A DNA stretch of 46,473 nucleotides from a virus. Lineage: Duplodnaviria > Heunggongvirae > Uroviricota > Caudoviricetes. Where the stretch lies: the IMG/VR virus record IMGVR_UViG_2563366824_000001; one strand, written 5' to 3'. Below the pieces are notes generated by a model. The model searched no databases. It was not told the origin of the DNA and worked only from the letters and a program-made list of their open reading frames with translations. Of the stretch, positions 3,706 through 46,473 are shown in pieces. Positions within the stretch are counted from its first letter, which is position 1. The number at the start of each line of letters is the position of its first letter. The position numbers and the translations under genes were made by a program.

Positions 3706-4067
3706 TATGCTCCAGCCTCCGGCGCTTTTGGCATTACTGCCCAGTGAGTGATATTGAAGTTTTCAAGGTCCCCGACCTGAAATGTCCACTGCCATTCTCC
3801 GGTTTCTTTTTGTCCCCAGGTGTACCAGAGAGAACGCCAGCCAATCAGCCAGCCTTCTCCGTTAGCATCAAATAACAGAACACTTTCATTTGCTGGTGGC
3901 AGTTCAGCTGACACTGGTATTATTTTGTTTTCCAGTGCCGCACATTTAGCTTCAAGCGCGTCGAATTTACGTACCAGGTACTCAGCATTTGTTTCGTTCA
4001 CTTTCAGATCTCGCGGTACACATTTCCCGCGAAGAAACCCTTCCATTTCGAAAACATTCATGCGCAT
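3705..4067 (-). CDS. Hypothetical early protein (YfdS-like size; DUF551-like C-terminal ITHWAVMPKAP motif)
   Basis: 120-aa ORF in the same operon with overlapping start/stop junctions. Confidence 0.55.
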   Translation of the reverse strand: MRMNVFEMEGFLRGKCVPRDLKVNETNAEYLVRKFDALEAKCAALENKIIPVSAELPPANESVLLFDANGEGWLIGWRSLWYTWGQKETGEWQWTFQVGDLENFNITHWAVMPKAPEAGA

Positions 4068-4594
4068 TTGCGTAACTCCGATAACTCGTTAAAACGTTCC
4101 ATAAACATCCCGTAGGCATGGCTAGGTGCCAGTGGAATCACGTTGAACATCTCTGTTGCCGGGATGCCTTCCAGTACAGGCCAGAAAGAGCCATCATCAA
4201 GCCCGAGATCGCGGCGTTCGGTTGCCAGCATGATAAGATCGGCATATTTCACGGGCGTACTCATAACTGGGGGTAACCCGTATTTCTCACGGATTACGGC
4301 GTCAATTTTTTCTTCCATCCGTTTATAGTCAGGAAGAAGGCGTTTCAGTGGAGCGGGAATATCCTGGCAATACGCTTCTGTTGCATCATGCATTAACGCT
4401 TCAAAAGCAAATTCCTGCGGCACCAGCTGGCTGCAAAGCACCGCATGTTGGGCGACACTGTAGAAGTGAGAAAGATGACCGGCAAAGCGGCAGATATTTG
4501 AAAGGGAAACCGCGATATCGTTAATCACGATGTCGTCTTTATTTATCTTGTTATAATAAAAATGCTTCCCGGAAAAAGTTTTAATAAATGACAT
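4058..4594 (-). CDS. yfdR: HD-domain phosphohydrolase (YfdR/YfbR-like 5'-deoxynucleotidase)
   Basis: H..H and MHDATEAY (HD) metal-binding motifs; start taken at the second ATG (MSFIKTF...), which has SD ggaga 8 nt upstream and gives 178 aa. Confidence 0.7.
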   Translation of the reverse strand: MSFIKTFSGKHFYYNKINKDDIVINDIAVSLSNICRFAGHLSHFYSVAQHAVLCSQLVPQEFAFEALMHDATEAYCQDIPAPLKRLLPDYKRMEEKIDAVIREKYGLPPVMSTPVKYADLIMLATERRDLGLDDGSFWPVLEGIPATEMFNVIPLAPSHAYGMFMERFNELSELRKCA

Positions 4595-4721
4595 TTTGTT
4601 CTCCACGTATATGCGCTGCACCGCGCTGAGTTTGGGTAAAAGGAAGCCCTCACCATCCGGTGATTATTGAGTTAATTACGTTTCCATAAATGCCCCCGCA
4701 GGGGCATTTGCAGTAATGAAA

Positions 4722-5546
4722 TCAGGCGGTGAAAGTACCAATAAAGGTTTCTACTTTGCTGTCTTTGAATTTCTCAACAAGCAGATCACGAAATTCGTTA
4801 GCCATATCTTCCTGCACCGCTTCCAGCTGAATAATGCGCAGAACCAGTACAGGACGATCGCCAGTGATAATGCTGAGGCGTAATTTAAACGGACGTTCTT
4901 TCAGACCTTCAAACGGAACGCATTTAAATTCAAATGCCACTGGCATAATGTCTTTGGTCTTCGCTTCGACAGATTCCATCAGGGAGCGTTTGCCGCTGAA
5001 GTCATTATCTTCAAAATCAGCGGTCTGGTTTGCTTCAATCGTGATTTTACGGACTGCCGCAGCCGCTTTTGTTGCCTGAATGGTGTCACCATTAGCATCA
5101 AAGCCCACAAGGTAGTCGGCCCAGTCTTCAATCCATTCTGCCAGTGACTTCTGGGAGTTACGCTCGCCGTTAACAGACAACAGGGCAGAGAACGGTCCTG
5201 TCTTTTTCAGTTTGAGAGTGGCGGTGTTATCTGCGTGACCTGGTTCATCAATAGTACCCAGGTTAAGTACACTGACGGCACGCATATTATCAGCATCGAT
5301 AAAGCAGCGGGTGCCTTCATCTGCAAGATCTTTAGAATAACGGGTAAAGTCATCGATGCTGGCAGTGGAAAGCGCACCACGGAAACGGAAGCGATTTAAA
5401 TTAAATTTTTCCAGATCATGAATGCGGAAATTCTCAGGCAATGCCACAGCATCGGCACCAATATTACTGATAATTTCATTAACACCCTGAGCAGAAATAA
5501 GGGCATGGATTTGATTAATTGCGGTTGCGTCTAAGTTCTGAGACAT
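4722..5546 (-). CDS. yfdQ: YfdQ-like protein (DUF2303 family) of lambdoid prophage early-left region
   Basis: 274 aa beginning [21 protein letters not shown]; SD gagga before the ATG; size and sequence agree with my recollection of CPS-53 YfdQ. Confidence 0.65.
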
Positions 5547-5611
5547 AATAAGTCCTCACTATATAAAGATATTCAGTGATGAGATAAATAATCAGTTAAT
5601 TAAGAACGATA

Positions 5612-5974
5612 TTAATGACCTGCTGCGCGTAGTTTTCCGTCAGGTTCACCGGCAAGAGTCAGTAATTGTCCCTGGTCTTCCTGCAGAATAGTCAGGCGAC
5701 CACCGCGATTGACATACATCGGCGTTTCGGTGGTGTCTTCTTCGGAAATTTTCCCGCGGTTAGTCGGGCGAACATATGAGAGTTTGTGTTTGATTTTCAC
5801 ACGGTTCTCATCAAATGGTTCGATTTCCAGGTTGAGTGAGACCTTACCTTTGGTTTTCGTGTTCATCACACCGGAAGCGACTTCACTGAGAACTGCGCCG
5901 ATTTTGGTTTCAAATACGCCGCCGTCCAGCTCCCCGATAAATGCCTGCACATCAGTACTGCGTTCGCTAGCCAT
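5612..5974 (-). CDS. Hypothetical early protein (YfdP-like), first gene of the leftward operon
   Basis: Start placed at MASERSTDV..., preceded by SD gaggag at 8 nt (120 aa); the longer six-frame ORF extends into GC-rich non-coding sequence. Confidence 0.6.
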   Translation of the reverse strand: MASERSTDVQAFIGELDGGVFETKIGAVLSEVASGVMNTKTKGKVSLNLEIEPFDENRVKIKHKLSYVRPTNRGKISEEDTTETPMYVNRGGRLTILQEDQGQLLTLAGEPDGKLRAAGH

Positions 5975-6444
5975 TTTGCTGCTCCTCATCATATCGACCC
6001 TGCAAGGTCGGTTGGTTTCTCCACAAAACAGAGAAGAACACCTGCGGTGGCAGCCGCCCGGATGGATTGGGTTATGAGCCCGTCGTCCGGTGATGCTCTT
6101 CTCTGTTTTGCAAAAAAGGACGGTACCAGCCGGAAGCAAGGGTACAAACTGGTACCGCCAGGACTACACACAGCATAAAGTTGTGGTGCCGGGTGCCTCC
6201 CGGTGCCTGGCGAAGGTTGCACACCAGGCGGGTGGGTATCCACAGAAGGTCGACTGTCAGCCTCAACCTTAACCCGCGTGCGCTGAGCCGCATTCACCAC
6301 AACGCTAAGGATTCTCTCTGGTTGAAAATACTTAGCTGTTATGTGCCTGCTTTTAGCCACATCAGGCGAGGTGGACCTGGTTATTCCCCAACAACAAGGA
6401 TTCGGTTAATCTGGATATCCCCAACAACAATAAGAGTATTCAAT

Positions 6445-6960
6445 GTGATCGCTGAATTAACGGCAGCAATGACGGCTATTCGTGAAACAGCCCAGATTGC
6501 AAAACTAATGAACGAGGCAAAAACTCAAGCTGAAGTAAATGCGGCTATTGGTGAGCTGAACTCAAAGCTTGCGTCTATTCAGCGCGAATGCGTGTCTCTC
6601 GTTGAACTGGTGGGCTCTTATCAAGAAATAAATGCTTCTCTCAAAGCTAAAATTGCAGAATTCGAAAACTTTGAGGCTCAGACGGAAGGCTATATCCTTA
6701 ACCAACTTGAGTCGGGTACTTTTGTATACTCGAAGGAGGTAATCGTGAACGGTGGCAGCATAACCATGCATCTTTGCCCAAAATGTTTTGGACAAAAGAT
6801 AGTATCGATACTTCAACCATTCCCGGTTAGCGAAGATGAGCTTTTTCATAAAAGCAGGTGCCTCCACTGTGAAAATAAGTTTCTGATGAATAAAAATCCG
6901 GATTACGTATCGCCTCCATCCATTGAGGAGTTGTCCAGAAAACTTAACGGCAATCTGTAG
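6445..6960 (+). CDS. Coiled-coil protein with C-terminal C4 zinc ribbon; lysogeny-region accessory gene convergent with cI
   Basis: Probable GTG start at 6445 (SD aagag), alternative ATG at 6469; N-terminal heptad-like helix, C-terminal CPKC ... CLHC; own terminator at 6990..7017. Confidence 0.6.
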   Translation: MIAELTAAMTAIRETAQIAKLMNEAKTQAEVNAAIGELNSKLASIQRECVSLVELVGSYQEINASLKAKIAEFENFEAQTEGYILNQLESGTFVYSKEVIVNGGSITMHLCPKCFGQKIVSILQPFPVSEDELFHKSRCLHCENKFLMNKNPDYVSPPSIEELSRKLNGNL

Positions 6961-6989
6961 ATTGCTACTGTTGTGGATATCCAGATTGT

Positions 6990-7017
6990 TAAAGAGCTAA
7001 GCGTCCTGTAGGGCGCT
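6990..7017 (+). terminator. Rho-independent terminator for the 6445..6960 gene
   Basis: agcgtcc-tgta-gggcgct stem-loop followed by TTTTTT. Confidence 0.5.
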
Positions 7018-7139
7018 TTTTTGTTGCTAATGAATCATCCTAGACTTCATATGCTCCAGGCGGCTACTTCGTGGGCGTCCTGCCTGTTTGTTGTTTCTCT
7101 TGGGTACATTATGTATCCCAAAGGTACATTGTCAAGTAT

Positions 7140-7165
7140 AAAAAAACCTGCCGAAGCAGGTTCAT
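7140..7165 (-). terminator. Rho-independent terminator downstream of cI (minus strand)
   Basis: aacctgc-ttcg-gcaggtt stem-loop followed by a 7-T run when read on the minus strand, just past the cI stop. Confidence 0.55.
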
Positions 7166-7174
7166 AAACATTGA

Positions 7175-7849
7175 TTAGGCTTTGATTTTGTATCTTCTTG
7201 GTTTTCCTGAGAAAATCACAGTTCCAATTATAGAGCAATTACCGTTGATCTTAATGTAAGGCTCAGGCCAGTTTGGGTTTAACGCTTTGAGATAACGCTG
7301 TGTCCCATCTTCTATCAACCTTTTGAAGGTGGTTTCACCTGTATCGTGCATCAATGCAATAACGTCGTCACCGTGGCAGGCAGGTACTTCAGGATCGACA
7401 AAAATCATGTCTCCCGGGCGGTACTCATCAATCATTGAATCACCTATCACCCGCAAGATATAAGTCATTTCCCCACAGGGTACAGGGCAGGGATACGTTT
7501 CTGCTGTGCTCAAATCAACCTCAGAATATCCAACTTCTTTCCATGCTCCGGCCTGTACCCATGATATGACAGGGACTAATGTGATTTGTTTATTAGTGAT
7601 TGAAACATCAGGTTTTTTTGTGATGTTCGTTGTCTGGTGTTCTTGATCGAGCCATCCGACAGGCAGGTCGAAACATTTTTCGATGTGTCGTGCCATGCTG
7701 TCACCGATATTTTTAGTAGCACCATCTCCCATAAACCTGCTGGTCTGGGTTGGCTCGCGATCAATCATAGTGGCAAAGGAAGAATTCCCGCCAACACCAT
7801 CTCTCAGTTTTCTGGCGTTAGACCGCCGGATGTCATGGATTGTTTTCAT
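7175..7849 (-). CDS. cI: CI-type prophage repressor (N-terminal HTH, C-terminal LexA-like S24 autopeptidase domain)
   Basis: 224 aa; C-terminal GDSM ... K pattern of S24 peptidases; divergent from a Cro-like gene across a palindromic operator region. Confidence 0.85.
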   Translation of the reverse strand: MKTIHDIRRSNARKLRDGVGGNSSFATMIDREPTQTSRFMGDGATKNIGDSMARHIEKCFDLPVGWLDQEHQTTNITKKPDVSITNKQITLVPVISWVQAGAWKEVGYSEVDLSTAETYPCPVPCGEMTYILRVIGDSMIDEYRPGDMIFVDPEVPACHGDDVIALMHDTGETTFKRLIEDGTQRYLKALNPNWPEPYIKINGNCSIIGTVIFSGKPRRYKIKA

Positions 7850-7864
7850 AACGAAATTAAAACC

Positions 7865-7885
7865 CTTGTACCGTTAAGGTACAAG
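7865..7885. promoter_or_regulatory. Palindromic operator candidate (OR) between cI and cro
   Basis: cttgtacc-gttaa-ggtacaag: perfect 8-bp inverted arms. A second inverted repeat atatgta-N9-tacatat (7914..7936) overlaps the cro SD. Confidence 0.5.
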
Positions 7886-7939
7886 TATCTTGAAGGTTCA
7901 TTTCAATCATGTAATATGTATACCGGAGGTACATATTGT

Positions 7940-8140
7940 ATGAAAGCGTATTGGGACTCTTTAACCAAAGAACAGCAGGGCGAGTTGGCCGGAAAAGTTG
8001 GCTCAACACCTGGCTACTTACGGCTGGTTTTCAATGGCTATAAAAAAGCCAGTTTTGTGCTGGCTAAAAAACTTGAGCAATGCACGTCAGGTGCAATTAC
8101 GAAATCTGACTTAAGACCGGATATCTATCCGAAAGATTAG
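7940..8140 (+). CDS. cro: Cro-like HTH regulator
   Basis: 66 aa; SD ggaggt 9 nt before the ATG; divergent from cI; HTH-like GELAGKVGSTPGYL. Confidence 0.75.
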   Translation: MKAYWDSLTKEQQGELAGKVGSTPGYLRLVFNGYKKASFVLAKKLEQCTSGAITKSDLRPDIYPKD

Positions 8141-8171
8141 CAGAACACTTTCAATTTTTAACCACAGAACG

Positions 8172-8741
8172 ATGAGGCTAATCGTGGGTAAGCATCACTG
8201 GAAAATAGAAAAACAGCCTGAGTGGTACGTGAAAGCTGTCAGAAAAACTATCGCGGCGTTGCCGGGTGGTTACGCTGAAGCGGCTGACTGGCTCGATGTA
8301 ACAGAAAACGCTTTATTCAACCGCCTTCGTGCAGATGGCGATCAGATTTTCCCGCTGGGATGGGCAATGGTTTTACAGCGTGCTGGTGGCACTCATTTCA
8401 TTGCTGATGCTGTGGCGCAGTCTGCAAATGGCGTCTTTGTGTCTCTTCCTGACGTCGAGGATGTGGACAACGCCGATATTAACCAGCGTCTGCTGGAAGT
8501 CATTGAACAGATCGGCAGTTATTCAAAACAGATTCGTTCAGCAATCGAAGACGGTGTAGTGGAACCGCATGAGAAGACAGCAATTAACGACGAGCTGTAT
8601 CTCTCAATTTCGAAGCTGCAGGAGCATGCAGCACTTGTCTACAAAATTTTTTGCATTTCAGAAAGTAATGACGCCCGCGAGTGTGCAGCTCCGGGCGTCG
8701 TGGCGTCGATTGCTTCTGGTTGTGGAGAAACTAACGCATGA
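8172..8741 (+). CDS. Hypothetical protein at the cII position (possible CII/YdaT-like regulator)
   Basis: 189-aa ORF right after cro; family assignment is a guess from position only; alternative GTG start at 8184 has a better SD. Confidence 0.45.
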
Positions 8742-13720: not shown

Positions 13721-14473
13721 ATGAACCTTGAAGCCTTACCGAAATATTACTCCCCGAAATCTCCAAAATTGAGCGATGACGCACCGGCGACAGGCTCTGG
13801 TGGTTTAACAATTACGGATGTAATGGCTGCGCAGGGGATGGTGCAGTCGAAAGCACCGCTTGGGTTTGCCTTATTCCTGGCAAAAGTTGGTGTTCAGGAT
13901 CCTCAGTTTGCGATTGAAGGTCTGCTCAATTACGCGATGGCACTGGATAACCCGACATTGAACAAATTGAGTGAAGAAACCCGGTTACAGATCATCCCTT
14001 ACCTTGTGAATTTTGCCTTTGCTGATTATTCCAGGTCTGCGGCAAGTAAGGCTCGCTGTGAGTATTGTGCTGGTACTGGATTTCATAATGTATTGCGCGA
14101 AGTGGTGAAACACTCCAGAAGTGGGGAATCTGTTATCAAGGAAGAGTGGGTGAAGGAACTATGTCAGCATTGCCATGGTAAGGGAGAAGTCAGCACAGCG
14201 TGCAGAGGGTGTAAGGGTAAAGGTATTGTCCTGGATGAAAAAAGGACCCGGCTTCATGGCGCGCCTGTTTATAAGATTTGTGGGCGTTGCAATGGAAACC
14301 GGTTTAGTCGTTTACCAACGACACTGGCGCGGTGTCATGTCCAGAAGCTGGTACCAGACCTGACTGATTATCAGTGGTACAAAGGATATGCAGATGTCAT
14401 TGATAAACTGGTTACAAAGTGCTGGCAGGAAGAAGCATATGCTGAGGTGCAATTAAGAAAAGTGACGAGATAA
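13721..14473 (+). CDS. Late-gene antiterminator Q-like protein (QuuQ/YdfT-like, four CxxCxGxG zinc-finger repeats)
   Basis: 250 aa; SD ggaga; CEYCAGTGF, CQHCHGKGE, CRGCKGKGI, CGRCNGNRF repeats; followed by a PR'/tR'-like unit and the lysis genes. Confidence 0.65.
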   Translation: MNLEALPKYYSPKSPKLSDDAPATGSGGLTITDVMAAQGMVQSKAPLGFALFLAKVGVQDPQFAIEGLLNYAMALDNPTLNKLSEETRLQIIPYLVNFAFADYSRSAASKARCEYCAGTGFHNVLREVVKHSRSGESVIKEEWVKELCQHCHGKGEVSTACRGCKGKGIVLDEKRTRLHGAPVYKICGRCNGNRFSRLPTTLARCHVQKLVPDLTDYQWYKGYADVIDKLVTKCWQEEAYAEVQLRKVTR

Positions 14474-14504
14474 ATGATTTTCGCCGAAGATGGCGACGTA
14501 ATGC

Positions 14505-14533
14505 TTGCATTTTTCAAAAAATATGGATAAAAT
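14505..14533 (+). promoter_or_regulatory. Candidate late promoter PR' (-35 TTGCAT, 17-bp spacer, -10 TAAAAT)
   Basis: Seen in sequence immediately downstream of the Q-like gene; the region up to the terminator would carry a qut-like site. Confidence 0.4.
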
Positions 14534-14577
14534 TCTTTCAACGATGGGCTTTATATACCCGACGTTAAGAAAAAGTA

Positions 14578-14606
14578 GAAAACCCGCTGATGAGCGGGTT
14601 TTTGTG
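14578..14606 (+). terminator. Rho-independent terminator (tR'-like), about 65 nt downstream of the candidate PR' start
   Basis: aacccgct-gatg-agcgggtt stem followed by TTTTT. Confidence 0.6.
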
Positions 14607-14888
14607 CTTTAAATAGGGTAATAGAGATGTTGAATCTCATTCCGGGATTCATGTTTGTTTACTTATTATTTATCGGGTGACTTTGCCTGATGTTTAAAAT
14701 GTTTTCTTCCAGTACTATGTCCCTAGATACAATGAGTCTGCATATTACATTATTAGCAGAGCTATTACGGTCAAAGTACAGCATAAGCTTTTAAAGCCAA
14801 TCAACCAGTCATCAAGACAGACGGGGTTATTCATGAAAACTCTCCATGTTTGATTCGATGGGGCCTGAAATTAAAGCTTTAATATAGC

Positions 14889-15101
14889 TCATGAAAGGTA
14901 AACATTGGCAGCTGAAGGGCCACGCAGACCATTTATCCGGCAAAATTCCACGCGTAATCCGGTGGTAATTTCTTCTGCATCGCGGAGATTGAGCGCTGAA
15001 ACATGAAGCTGGACATCGATACGACCATCGGATGGGGTGATAAGACCCTTGCCGCTTTTGCCGTCAAAGGTTTTGACAATTCCTGTCATTTTACGGGACA
15101 A
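14889..15101 (-). CDS. Cold-shock protein family member (CspF/CspH-like)
   Basis: 70 aa [27 protein letters not shown] ... [23 protein letters not shown] fold of the CspF/H subgroup. Confidence 0.85.
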
Positions 15102-15401
15102 AAAAATTCCTTAATACTGATAACTGGGCGCACTATACACACGTTCCTGAAGAAAGCTATAGTTTTTTGATGGGGTTGAAGATGGCTGGATGTCTAAAAT
15201 AAACATTGCTTCATATGTTCAACTATGCGTTAATGATTGCGTCGGTTTGAAGAACAGACGATATACGAAGTAGTTTACTAAAGCAGTTCTCATTTCAGGT
15301 GTTATTCACTTATTCCTTCTTTGAGTCTCTCCAATTAAGTACGAAGTCGTTTCTGTTATACAAGCCATTTATGCCGAAAGGCTCAAGTTAAGGAATGTAG
15401 A

Positions 15402-15617
15402 ATGTCAAATAAAATGACTGGTTTAGTAAAATGGTTTAACGCTGATAAAGGTTTTGGCTTTATTTCTCCTGTTGATGGTAGTAAAGATGTGTTTGTGCAT
15501 TTTTCTGCGATTCAGAATGATAATTTTCGAACCTTATTTGAAGGTCAAAAGGTTACCTTCTCTGTAGAGAGTGGTGCTAAAGGTCCTGCAGCAGCAAATG
15601 TCATAATTACTGATTAA
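15402..15617 (+). CDS. cspB: Cold-shock protein CspB-like
   Basis: 71 aa [67 protein letters not shown]; RNP1/RNP2 motifs present. Confidence 0.85.
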
Positions 15618-15898
15618 AATTCATAGTTTGTCTGTATACGATAACGAAGAAGGCTGATGCCTGAGTGGAGATACAGACAGAGTGGTGAATATTGGATCTC
15701 TTTAATAAATAGTAAGGAGGTCCAATACATGAAACAATGGCCAGCATATTTGGCAATAACTTAATCAGGAAAAGTATGCTAACCATTGTGGTGAAGTGCA
15801 GGTTTGCTGCATGAATAGTTTTACAGCAGAAGCTAACTGCTGGCATAGCAAAACAAAGTGCGTAAGTGGATGACTCCCACAAAAAGTACCACAATATT

Positions 15899-18490: not shown

Positions 18491-18850
18491 ATTAATATTA
18501 AATCGGATTATTTTTAGCGCTGAATGTGAAATTTAAATAAAAAGGACTCTTCCATGAGTCAAAATCCTTGAAATCTTAAGGGTAAGATAAAAGGTCATTA
18601 GACAGAATGACACGTTTTATTAATAAATAAAGCTATTGTTTCATTCGTGTGTTTTTCTTTACAAAAGTAATCCTTGCTATGGTTGGTTAATCATGCGTTA
18701 ATGGTGTTCTGGTTTGTTACAAAATTATCTGAAGCAGTCATTGTTATAATTTTATTATTTGTACCTCTTGAGATCTCCTTGTTGGTTTTTCTCTCTGATA
18801 TTTTTTTTCGGACCATTCTGCCCAAGGGCTAACTTCTTCAAAAGGTAATA

Positions 18851-19066
18851 ATGATGTCTAACAAAATGACTGGTTTAGTGAAATGGTTTAACCCTGAAAA
18901 AGGTTTTGGTTTCATCACGCCGAAAGATGGTAGCAAAGATGTGTTTGTCCATTTCTCAGTTATTCAGAGCAACGATTTCAAAACGTTAACTGAGAATCAG
19001 GAAGTCGAATTCGGTATTGAGAACGGACCTAAAGGCCCCGCGGCTGTTCATGTAGTGGCACTTTGA
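18851..19066 (+). CDS. cspI: Cold-shock protein CspI-like
   Basis: [71 protein letters not shown]; long AT-rich 5' leader upstream as in csp genes. Confidence 0.85.
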
Positions 19067-19269
19067 GGTAGAAAATATTACAAACCATATTCACTTTAGA
19101 TGCCCGTGTTGCCATGGTTCTCAGTATAGAACATCATCTTTTGATGTTTCTGACAGGAATCCTTTCGGGGCAAAATGTATCTTTTGTAAATCAATGATGA
19201 TTACATTTGATAATATTTCACAATACTTAAATGTTAGCCGTCTGTCGTTAGATTTAAGAAAGTGAAAAT

Positions 19270-35709: not shown

Positions 35710-37145
<1,436 letters not shown>

Positions 37146-45269: not shown

Positions 45270-45860
45270 TTATATGTCAGGTGTCTGAAGTTTTGCTTTG
45301 GCTCTTAAAATGGTTTGCCGCGAGGTTTTGAATTCCCGGGCAATGGCACTTATACTTACACCTGACTTAATTCGTTCGAATACCACCTGTTTCTGTTCTT
45401 CATTTAACACAGGTGGTCGACCAAAACGTTTCCCTGCGCCCCGGGCTCTTACTATCCCGGAATGAGTGCGTTCAAGTAAAAGGTCTCGTTCAAATTCAGC
45501 GACTGCTGAAATTACTTGCATCATCATTTTTCCTGTTGGACTGGTCAGGTCAATGCCCCCCAATGCTAAGCAATGCACTCTGATACCTGTTTCGGTCAGT
45601 TGTTCCACTGTTTTCCTGATATCCATTGCATTACAACCAAGGCGATCCAGTTTTGTCACAATCAATTGATCACCACATTTCAGGCGAGCAAGCAACCGGT
45701 TAAAACCAGGACGCTCACTGGTTGCTGCTGAGCCGCTAATGTGTTCTTCGATTATTTGCTGAGGTTTGATTTTAAAACCTGCACTTTCGATTTCCCGGCG
45801 TTGATTTTCGGTGGTCTGATCCAGAGTTGATATCCGACAGTAAGCAAAAATTCGAGACAT
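45270..45860 (-). CDS. Serine recombinase (resolvase / Pin-like DNA invertase family)
   Basis: 196 aa; N-terminal catalytic motif [13 protein letters not shown] with Ser nucleophile, LDRLG motif, C-terminal HTH ([15 protein letters not shown]). Confidence 0.85.
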
Positions 45861-46239
45861 AGTGAGACTCTATACGAAATTGGTGTACATATCATAATGC
45901 ATATCCAAAAATTATTTCGCTTATTATTGCACATATTTGTATGTATACGTTCGAAAATAAACAAATTCGGATGCAGTCCCGTAATTTTGGTGTAACCCAA
46001 AATCGATTTTTTGAAAAATGGCTTTAACTCGGTTTGTTTTTCGAACTCCGGGCGGACTCGAGAAAGACGAATAATAGTGTTGTATGTTGTTTTAGCCAGA
46101 TTTCAATTTGTTTGGTCTTGGAAAAGTGGAGCAAAAAGTTGTTAAAGTGGAAAAATGGTAAAAAAGTAGGTTGTTGCGGCATAACGTAGTTGTTGATATT
46201 TTTTAATGCATTGAAAAATTATTTTTCAGGGGGTGTTTA

Positions 46240-46473
46240 TTACACTTTACCATTTAAATTTTGGTTGTCTTTAAGAACTGATATCGCTGTTTGTAATAAT
46301 TCTTTGTTATCCAGCCATGACTTTTTCTTTATGTTTCCTTCAATGTAATCAAGCAATGTTCTGGTATTGATAGGTCTTCCCTGTTTTGCCACTTCCACGA
46401 CAGCATCTCCCAGGATAATTCTGACTTCAGGAAGCTGCGCGGGGAACCACTTTAGGGTGTCTTTTGATTTCAT
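46240..46473 (-). CDS. Hypothetical small protein; start codon is the last three bases of the window
   Basis: 77-aa ORF MKSKDTLKWFPAQLP...; promoter and SD lie outside the window, so the start cannot be validated. Confidence 0.35.
   Translation of the reverse strand: MKSKDTLKWFPAQLPEVRIILGDAVVEVAKQGRPINTRTLLDYIEGNIKKKSWLDNKELLQTAISVLKDNQNLNGKV

Follow-up and report, generated by a model that had tools for sequence, protein, structure and literature searches.

The DNA analyzed here, IMG/VR record IMGVR_UViG_2563366824_000001 (46,473 nucleotides (nt); this whole stretch is referred to as the window), is a lambdoid prophage, and positions 5900–7900 are 100% identical to Escherichia phage PhiR49_1 (PV340568.1, E. 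coli ECOR13), for which a literature search returned no publication. Beside the cI repressor gene lies an open reading frame (ORF) on the plus strand, in the frame of 6181–6960, which runs from a GTG at 6445 to a TAG at 6958–6960 and encodes 171 amino acids (aa). The initial annotation of this locus had described a gene with its own Shine–Dalgarno sequence and terminator, convergent with cI, and all of this could be recovered: the ORF, the sequence AAGAG, and a terminator hairpin are present, and cI is encoded on the minus strand. Its end coordinate, 7017, lies within the terminator, as the hairpin spans 6999–7018. We consider it probable (roughly 75%) that 6445–6960 encodes a prophage-borne, single-protein antiphage defence system of the Rip1 family. 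This reading is based on homology and a predicted fold, with the mechanism transferred by analogy from the characterized Rip1.

The initial annotation had further proposed a coiled coil plus a C4 zinc ribbon and had recognized no family. The zinc-ribbon motifs CPKC (C111/C114) and CLHC (C139/C142) are indeed present, and their four cysteines are invariant in an alignment of 31 diverse homologues, which are also conserved in the N-terminal half and have the motif S-I-L-Q-P in common. In the AlphaFold2 model built with this alignment (predicted local distance difference test, pLDDT, 91.2), the supposed coiled coil is instead predicted to be an alpha-helical hairpin (H3–24 and H28–79), followed by a six-stranded, beta-rich zinc-ribbon domain. 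A Foldseek comparison of the model with the PDB (E ≤ 1e-3) matched only 9oox_L and 9oox_M (probability 1.00; TM-score normalized by target length 0.53–0.71), so that the structure prediction suggested as a check had Rip1 as its only significant match: entry 9oox is HK446 Rip1 (HK446_037) bound to the small terminase of phage T6. A profile of the 31 homologues likewise matched 9oox_L at E 3.6e-19 (profile positions 5–156 of 170 against chain positions 15–160), with both CxxC pairs and SILQ lining up. By BLASTP, the protein is 27% identical to HK446 Rip1 (E 4e-11) and 29% identical to the homologue JBD30_030 of phage JBD30 (E 9e-20). It matches phrog_1244 (E 9.3e-60), which is listed as 'unknown function' in PHROGs and is also matched by HK446 Rip1, HK620 HkaP, and JBD30_030 (8e-51 to 3e-61). 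I122, L123, and all four cysteines are invariant across the target clade and the HK446, HK620, and JBD30 proteins, which gives the zinc-ribbon motif CxxC...(S/T)ILQ...CxxC. Judged by these matches, the protein is not without a family: it belongs to phrog_1244, i.e., the Rip1 family, and is a clear Rip1 relative, an addition to a known defence family rather than a new one.

Routine annotation misses this assignment because the library copies used (Pfam, NCBIfam, and PADLOC v2.0.0) lack the Rip1 family. For the target protein they returned chance-level matches only; PADLOC's single match was a model for a type I restriction enzyme (E 0.063), with none to RexA or RexB. These blanks are uninformative, since HK446 Rip1 itself has no match in the same Pfam and PADLOC copies. 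Homologues are nonetheless numerous. A word-indexed search (E ≤ 1e-3) identified 123 across the Enterobacterales, all of them annotated as 'hypothetical', and an exhaustive profile search yielded 2599 clusters at 50% identity (E ≤ 1e-3), 868 of which were found at E ≤ 1e-10.

The function of Rip1 was taken from section 5 of the review PMC13434031 and from PMC12908700, which summarize Patel et al. 2026 (Nature 651:1060); the passages on Rip1 in PMC12908700 and PMC13601566 agree with the account in PMC13434031. As that section describes it, the prophage protein Rip1 ('ring interacting pore 1') has no toxicity by itself, and escape mutations fall in the portal for phages of Pseudomonas and in the small terminase for those of E. 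coli (PMC13434031). In the cryo-EM structure summarized there, 12 Rip1 monomers surround an 11-mer small-terminase ring, which is touched by the C-terminal half, and the N-terminal part consists of amphipathic helices; the complex resembles a pore, causes liposomes to leak dye, and perforates cells (PMC13434031). The same section states that homologues are widespread in proteobacteria and mostly prophage-borne, and that deletion and expression data point to defence (PMC13434031). In Pseudomonas, the Rip1 gene sits between terminase genes (PMC13434031), with which our matches in JBD30, DMS3, and D3112 agree: JBD30_030 lies antisense between two genes that are unnamed in the JBD30 record and were identified by the review as the small and the large terminase.

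The target resembles these proteins in several respects. HK446 Rip1 and JBD30_030 are homologous to it over the full length and fall into the same PHROG; HK446 Rip1 and the homologues from Mu-like Pseudomonas phages belong to the same size class (164–171 aa), and HK446 Rip1 has the same predicted architecture of a helical hairpin and a C4 zinc-ribbon beta domain. Like the target, HK446 Rip1 and JBD30_030 are single-gene cassettes in temperate phages, antisense to the surrounding lytic operon. HkaP of phage HK620, a phage of the lambdoid/P22-like type, is 28% identical to the target, and its gene likewise lies antisense within the PL operon, although at a greater distance from PL, on the far side of nutL, N, and hkaQ. 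However, with only 27–29% identity to HK446 Rip1 and JBD30_030, the target forms part of a distinct enterobacterial clade with the N-terminus MIAEL. Its gene lies directly after PL, by the repressor, whereas HK446 Rip1 follows N and the Pseudomonas phage homologues lie between terminase genes.

By analogy with Rip1, the target protein would be made in the lysogen and be harmless alone. A superinfecting phage at the stage of late gene expression would assemble small terminase or portal into a ring-shaped oligomer, around which the C-terminal zinc-ribbon beta domain would bind. The ring would then template an approximately 12-mer, whose N-terminal amphipathic helical hairpins would form a pore in the inner membrane, and the cell would die or lyse before progeny are complete, which amounts to abortive infection. 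As for the local wiring, the gene forms a self-contained cassette (leader, Shine–Dalgarno sequence, coding sequence (CDS), and terminator) immediately downstream of and antisense to the cI-repressed promoter PL. With PL shut in the lysogen, the gene would be free for expression; after induction, convergent transcription from PL would cross the gene and damp new synthesis during the prophage's own lytic growth. A boxA-like element described below may help PL transcription through the untranslated antisense stretch.

Several points weigh against a straightforward transfer of this function. We know of no experiment on the target protein or its clade. As identity to the characterized proteins is only 27–29%, the trigger, and even the outcome, could differ. 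The amphipathicity of the N-terminal helix is moderate, with a peak hydrophobic moment, itself a crude measure, of 0.44 compared to 0.42 in HK446 Rip1; the AlphaFold2 model, a monomer, is silent on how a pore would assemble. Furthermore, a consensus scan of positions 5500–8200 revealed no strong or convincing sigma-70 promoter for the gene on the plus strand. The initial annotation had suggested a lysogen-expressed defence or exclusion gene; the defence part gains support from full-length homology to the experimentally characterized Rip1, whereas expression in the lysogen is inferred only, as no convincing promoter was found. A weak candidate for an extended −10 element precedes the leader (Table 1), and other loci carry −10-like sequences (TGTTAT, TAATAT, or TTTAAT) directly 5' of it.

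Within the clade, the most variable parts of the protein are an insert between the zinc knuckles (residues 126–138) and the C-terminal tail. The insert comprises 9–18 aa and falls into at least four sequence types, with a majority-residue fraction of 0.37; this fraction is 0.28 in the tail and 0.58–0.75 in the rest of the protein. Such variability would fit a diversifying sensor surface and, since it is concentrated in these two parts, the trigger may differ from that of HK446 or JBD30 Rip1.

The coordinates of the gene and its surroundings are collected in Table 1. The region assigned to OL/PL is identified as such from its sequence: the operator-type palindrome recurs at OR (7917–7935) between cI and cro, CCNNNGGTACA occurs at both 7118–7128 and 7923–7933, and in phage Ayreon the corresponding position carries a promoter annotation. 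Because OL/PL lies between cI and the gene, the latter forms part of the early-left transcription unit, where it is placed on the downstream side of PL in antisense orientation, with its terminator facing PL. HK446 Rip1 and HK620 hkaP are antisense within the PL operon, too, but beyond N.

Table 1. Features of the immunity region and the early-left genes (positions in the window; a dot marks features without strand).
Feature	Position	Strand	Remarks
yfdR-like HD hydrolase	4058–4621	−	early-left gene
yfdQ/DUF2303	4722–5546	−	early-left gene
yfdP-like gene	5612–5974	−	early-left gene
Candidate extended −10 (TGtTATGTG) for the cargo gene	6337–6345	+	weak, inferred
Conserved ~100-nt leader	6346–6444	+	5' of the start codon; two TCCCCAACAACAA repeats
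Left arm of 19-nt inverted repeat (AATCTGGATATCCCCAACA)	6408–6426	.	5' cargo junction; 95% complementary to 6969–6987
Shine–Dalgarno-like AAGAG	6432–6436	+	8 nt 5' of GTG; AAGAG/ATGAG kept across aligned loci
Rip1-family gene, 171 aa	6445–6960	+	predicted N-terminal helical hairpin, then C-terminal beta/zinc-ribbon domain
Right arm of 19-nt inverted repeat	6969–6987	.	3' cargo junction
GCTCTTTAACAA, rrn-type boxA core match	6986–6997	−	PL direction; ~110 nt downstream of PL start, between right repeat arm and terminator
Intrinsic terminator of the cargo gene	6999–7024	+	hairpin 6999–7018 (8-bp stem, 4-nt loop) and T run; kept in relatives
PL	7108–7135	−	TTGACA-16-CATAAT, 11/12; points leftward through the gene's antisense strand
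OL operator ATGTATCCCAAAGGTACAT	7110–7128	.	palindrome between PL −35 and −10
Terminator of the cI transcript	7144–7163	−	terminator scan
cI repressor	7175–7849	−	helix-turn-helix and Peptidase_S24, E 1.5e-26
cro	7940–8140	+	
cII-like gene	8172–8741	+	

This arrangement does not bear out the proposal that the gene takes the position of rexAB in lambda. In lambda, rexAB is located between cI and OL and shares the PRM transcript with cI, and RexB is thought to abort superinfection via membrane damage. The likeness is that of a prophage gene near the repressor. The target, however, is on the strand opposite to cI, set apart from it by the cI terminator and OL/PL, and thus lies outside the PRM transcript; it is one protein rather than two and has no homology to RexAB (no PADLOC match).

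Some further observations concern the flanks of the gene. The immunity genes in the window are of the ymfK/ymfT/ymfL/ymfM type of the E. coli K-12 prophage e14, and positions 6300–6374 are common to phage SfV and e14, where ymfH is annotated over them. Downstream of PL, the block 7029–7095 (GAATCATCC...GGCGGCTACTTCGTGGGCGTCCTGCCTGT) is kept in SfV as well as in distant loci whose repressors differ (L005, L006, L013–L016, and L023), and is probably a PL leader element. A GC-rich non-coding stretch separates the yfdP-like gene from the target ORF. Here, the Rfam model of the gammaproteobacterial small RNA (sRNA) STnc100 (RF02076) matches at 6110–6333 on the minus strand over its full length (model positions 1–206 of 206), with 40.3 bits, below the gathering score of 47 (E 5.8e-7). 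This STnc100-like stretch has the orientation of PL transcription, lies between the yfdP-like gene and the cassette, and is partly conserved in SfV, Ayreon, L005, L013, and L016.

In the GenBank record of the identical phage PhiR49_1, the gene is annotated as a CDS of 242 aa (XSB42938.1), which starts at window position 6232, 213 nt upstream of the GTG at 6445. We prefer the start at 6445 because most homologues comprise 165–175 aa with the N-terminus MIAEL, because the ORF opens exactly at the equivalent codon in several other genome loci, and because codons 2–8 show synonymous variation between loci whereas the 100 nt upstream are conserved as DNA. The frame from 6232 is supported neither by the homologue lengths nor by this conservation pattern, and, judged from the sequences, the 242-aa call is probably too long. 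Two small neighboring 'hypothetical' CDSs of PhiR49_1 (record positions 4052–4183 and 5056–5172) are doubtful as well; they overlie the STnc100-like RNA and the PL/OL region.

The initial annotation had also asked whether the slot by the repressor is variable, and this proved to be the case. The match of SfV to the window breaks off at 6374 and resumes at 7029, with 523 bp in between that carry orf33 (phrog_3195) on the other strand, and Ayreon has only 385 bp in the slot. In other E. coli prophages, the leader (window 6300–6428, 98% identity) and the 3' flank (from 6975 or 6981) bracket different genes, namely an ECs1072-family gene of 144 aa (L022 2605–3039; L025 1945–2379) and a gene for an unrelated hypothetical protein of 167 aa (L023 2606–3109), neither of which received a Pfam or PADLOC assignment. 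In these loci, similarity to the target locus ends about 15 nt upstream of the start codon, the cargo itself is unrelated, and the cargo junctions coincide with a 19-nt inverted repeat. By sequence comparison, the slot is a cargo-swap hotspot, and the ECs1072-family and 167-aa cargos are candidates for lysogen-expressed functions.

The flanks of the cargo are themselves conserved. The leader is near-invariant in 12 of 13 loci, though the encoded proteins are only 45–62% identical. A structured or riboswitch-like 5' untranslated region was rejected, as the leader folds no better than shuffled sequences (z +1.18), its alignment contains no covarying or compensatory pairs, and it has no Rfam match. 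The inverted-repeat pair recurs in L004, L005, L006, L013, and L016; a 13-mer from it occurs exactly twice in the window, all other matches requiring two mismatches. With regard to RNA pairing between the 5' and 3' arms, changes in L013, L014, and L015 are uncompensated and one change in L023 is compensated (G-C to U-A). An invertible, phase-variable cassette was also rejected, since the chimeric junction of leader and inverted cargo was found in none of 5426 complete E. coli genomes. The third element, GCTCTTTAACAA, exactly matches the core sequence of boxA, the antitermination signal of rrn operons, and the copy between repeat arm and terminator is the only exact one in the window. An exact copy, which invariably lies on the minus strand and reads in the PL direction, is present in 13 of 13 platform-bearing loci, including those with other cargo (carriers include L004, L005, L008–L010, L014–L016, L022, L023, and L025); the motif is absent from the SfV, Ayreon, HK446, HK620, and JBD30 loci, all of which lack the platform. 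From this distribution, the boxA-like element belongs to the swappable platform rather than to the phage backbone. The platform also sets the target apart from HK446 and JBD30 Rip1, whose loci have no leader, inverted repeats, boxA, and terminator of this kind, and from HkaP, which lacks such flanks.

The platform occurs in a large group of enterobacterial lambdoid prophages, directly downstream of PL. We tentatively suggest that its elements by PL (the ~54–100-nt CA-rich leader, the 19-nt inverted repeats, boxA, and the terminator) could form a dedicated module for the exchange of defence genes and their expression in the lysogenic (ON) but not the lytic (OFF) state, a possibility to which we give somewhat less than even odds. 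If it is true, the uncharacterized cargos become new defence candidates, boxA would let PL transcription cross the antisense insert, and the hypervariable knuckle insert would retarget the Rip1 clade to different phage rings.

Relatives of the gene were found in prophage immunity regions in 13 genomes, and 11 of these 13 loci were read through for genome context (L004–L010 and L013–L016), with hosts including Citrobacter, Kosakonia, Scandinavium, Trabulsiella, Symbiopectobacterium, and Enterobacter. In all 11, the gene converges on a helix-turn-helix or cI-type repressor gene, with a divergent cro-like gene behind the latter in most loci; the 3' end of the repressor gene lies about 210–450 bp downstream of the gene in L004–L006, L009, L010, and L013–L016. 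The partner repressors belong to unrelated types, and the neighbors on the upstream side differ among loci. Of the 5426 complete E. coli genomes, 698 (~13%) contain the Rip1-type cassette at ≥80% coverage, and 1922 contain pieces of the platform flanks.

Other explanations of the gene have to be weighed against a Rip1-type defence. It could have a part in the lytic cycle of the prophage itself, binding the ring of the prophage's terminase or portal as an accessory protein that tunes DNA packaging or lysis timing. The prophage has a lambda-type Nu1/A/B packaging module, the gene of Mu-like Pseudomonas phages sits between terminase genes, and family members bind small-terminase or portal rings, as section 5 of the review describes (PMC13434031). 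We nevertheless regard this as unlikely: in every context examined, the gene runs antisense to the lytic operon around it, and it comes with a terminator of its own; the slot is a dispensable one that houses unrelated genes in sister prophages; and the deletion and expression data summarized in that section point to defence (PMC13434031). The label of HK620 hkaP as a 'putative superinfection exclusion protein' in its record would instead suggest classical superinfection exclusion by blocking DNA entry. This appears very improbable for the target, in which neither a transmembrane segment, as expected of an integral membrane protein of the SieA/SieB type, nor a signal peptide or hydrophobic run of at least 10 residues was found (net charge −5); furthermore, the escape mutations and the solved complex described for the family in the review section implicate late morphogenetic rings and not injection (PMC13434031).

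The fold of a helical hairpin and a zinc ribbon also calls to mind a regulator that binds nucleic acid or protein and acts on the immunity region or on host transcription, comparable to CT398/HP0958 or DksA/TraR. CT398/HP0958, which has a housekeeping role in flagellar and type III secretion system biology, shares this architecture; however, it is larger, is only 10% identical to the target, has no support from Pfam or a significant Foldseek match, and is at best an analogue. In Pfam, neither a zinc-ribbon or DksA/TraR family nor any other scored above threshold, and clear sequence homologues are found in settings quite unlike this one, either behind N or flanked by terminase genes. A specific regulatory partnership is further argued against by the unrelated types of the partner repressors, which leaves a regulator quite improbable. 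The public annotation as a 'hypothetical protein' with an over-long start might finally suggest a decaying or chance ORF without function. The chance of this is negligible, and it is refuted by conservation, given the 2599 homologous clusters, the invariant four cysteines and other motifs, the confident predicted fold, and the presence of the cassette in 698 of the 5426 complete E. coli genomes.

The assignment to the Rip1 family names a gene that is labelled 'hypothetical' and whose cassette is carried by about 13% of complete E. coli genomes, and it supplies a mechanism that can be tested. Prophage genes of this kind probably determine which phages fail late in infection, which bears on phage therapy and on the prediction of host range. 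The more original lead, however, is the conserved expression and exchange platform by PL with its alternative cargos, rather than the Rip1-family gene itself. A shared leader and terminator with swappable cargo offer a practical handle for finding further candidate defence genes by lambdoid repressors.

Outside the immunity region, the window contains further noteworthy features. Rfam matches above the gathering scores comprise two cspA thermoregulators on the plus strand (15241–15680 and 18707–19112; 156 and 120 bits) and the Hfq-binding sRNA isrC on the minus strand (36777–36899; 150 bits). An OmpD-like porin gene lies between Q and the lysis genes (PV340568.1 12455–13597; window ~14450–15592), and a gene for an omptin (OmpT-like) protease lies near the right end of the prophage (PV340568.1 43844–44797; window ~45839–46473, where it runs off the window end). 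Both are further lysogenic-conversion cargo.
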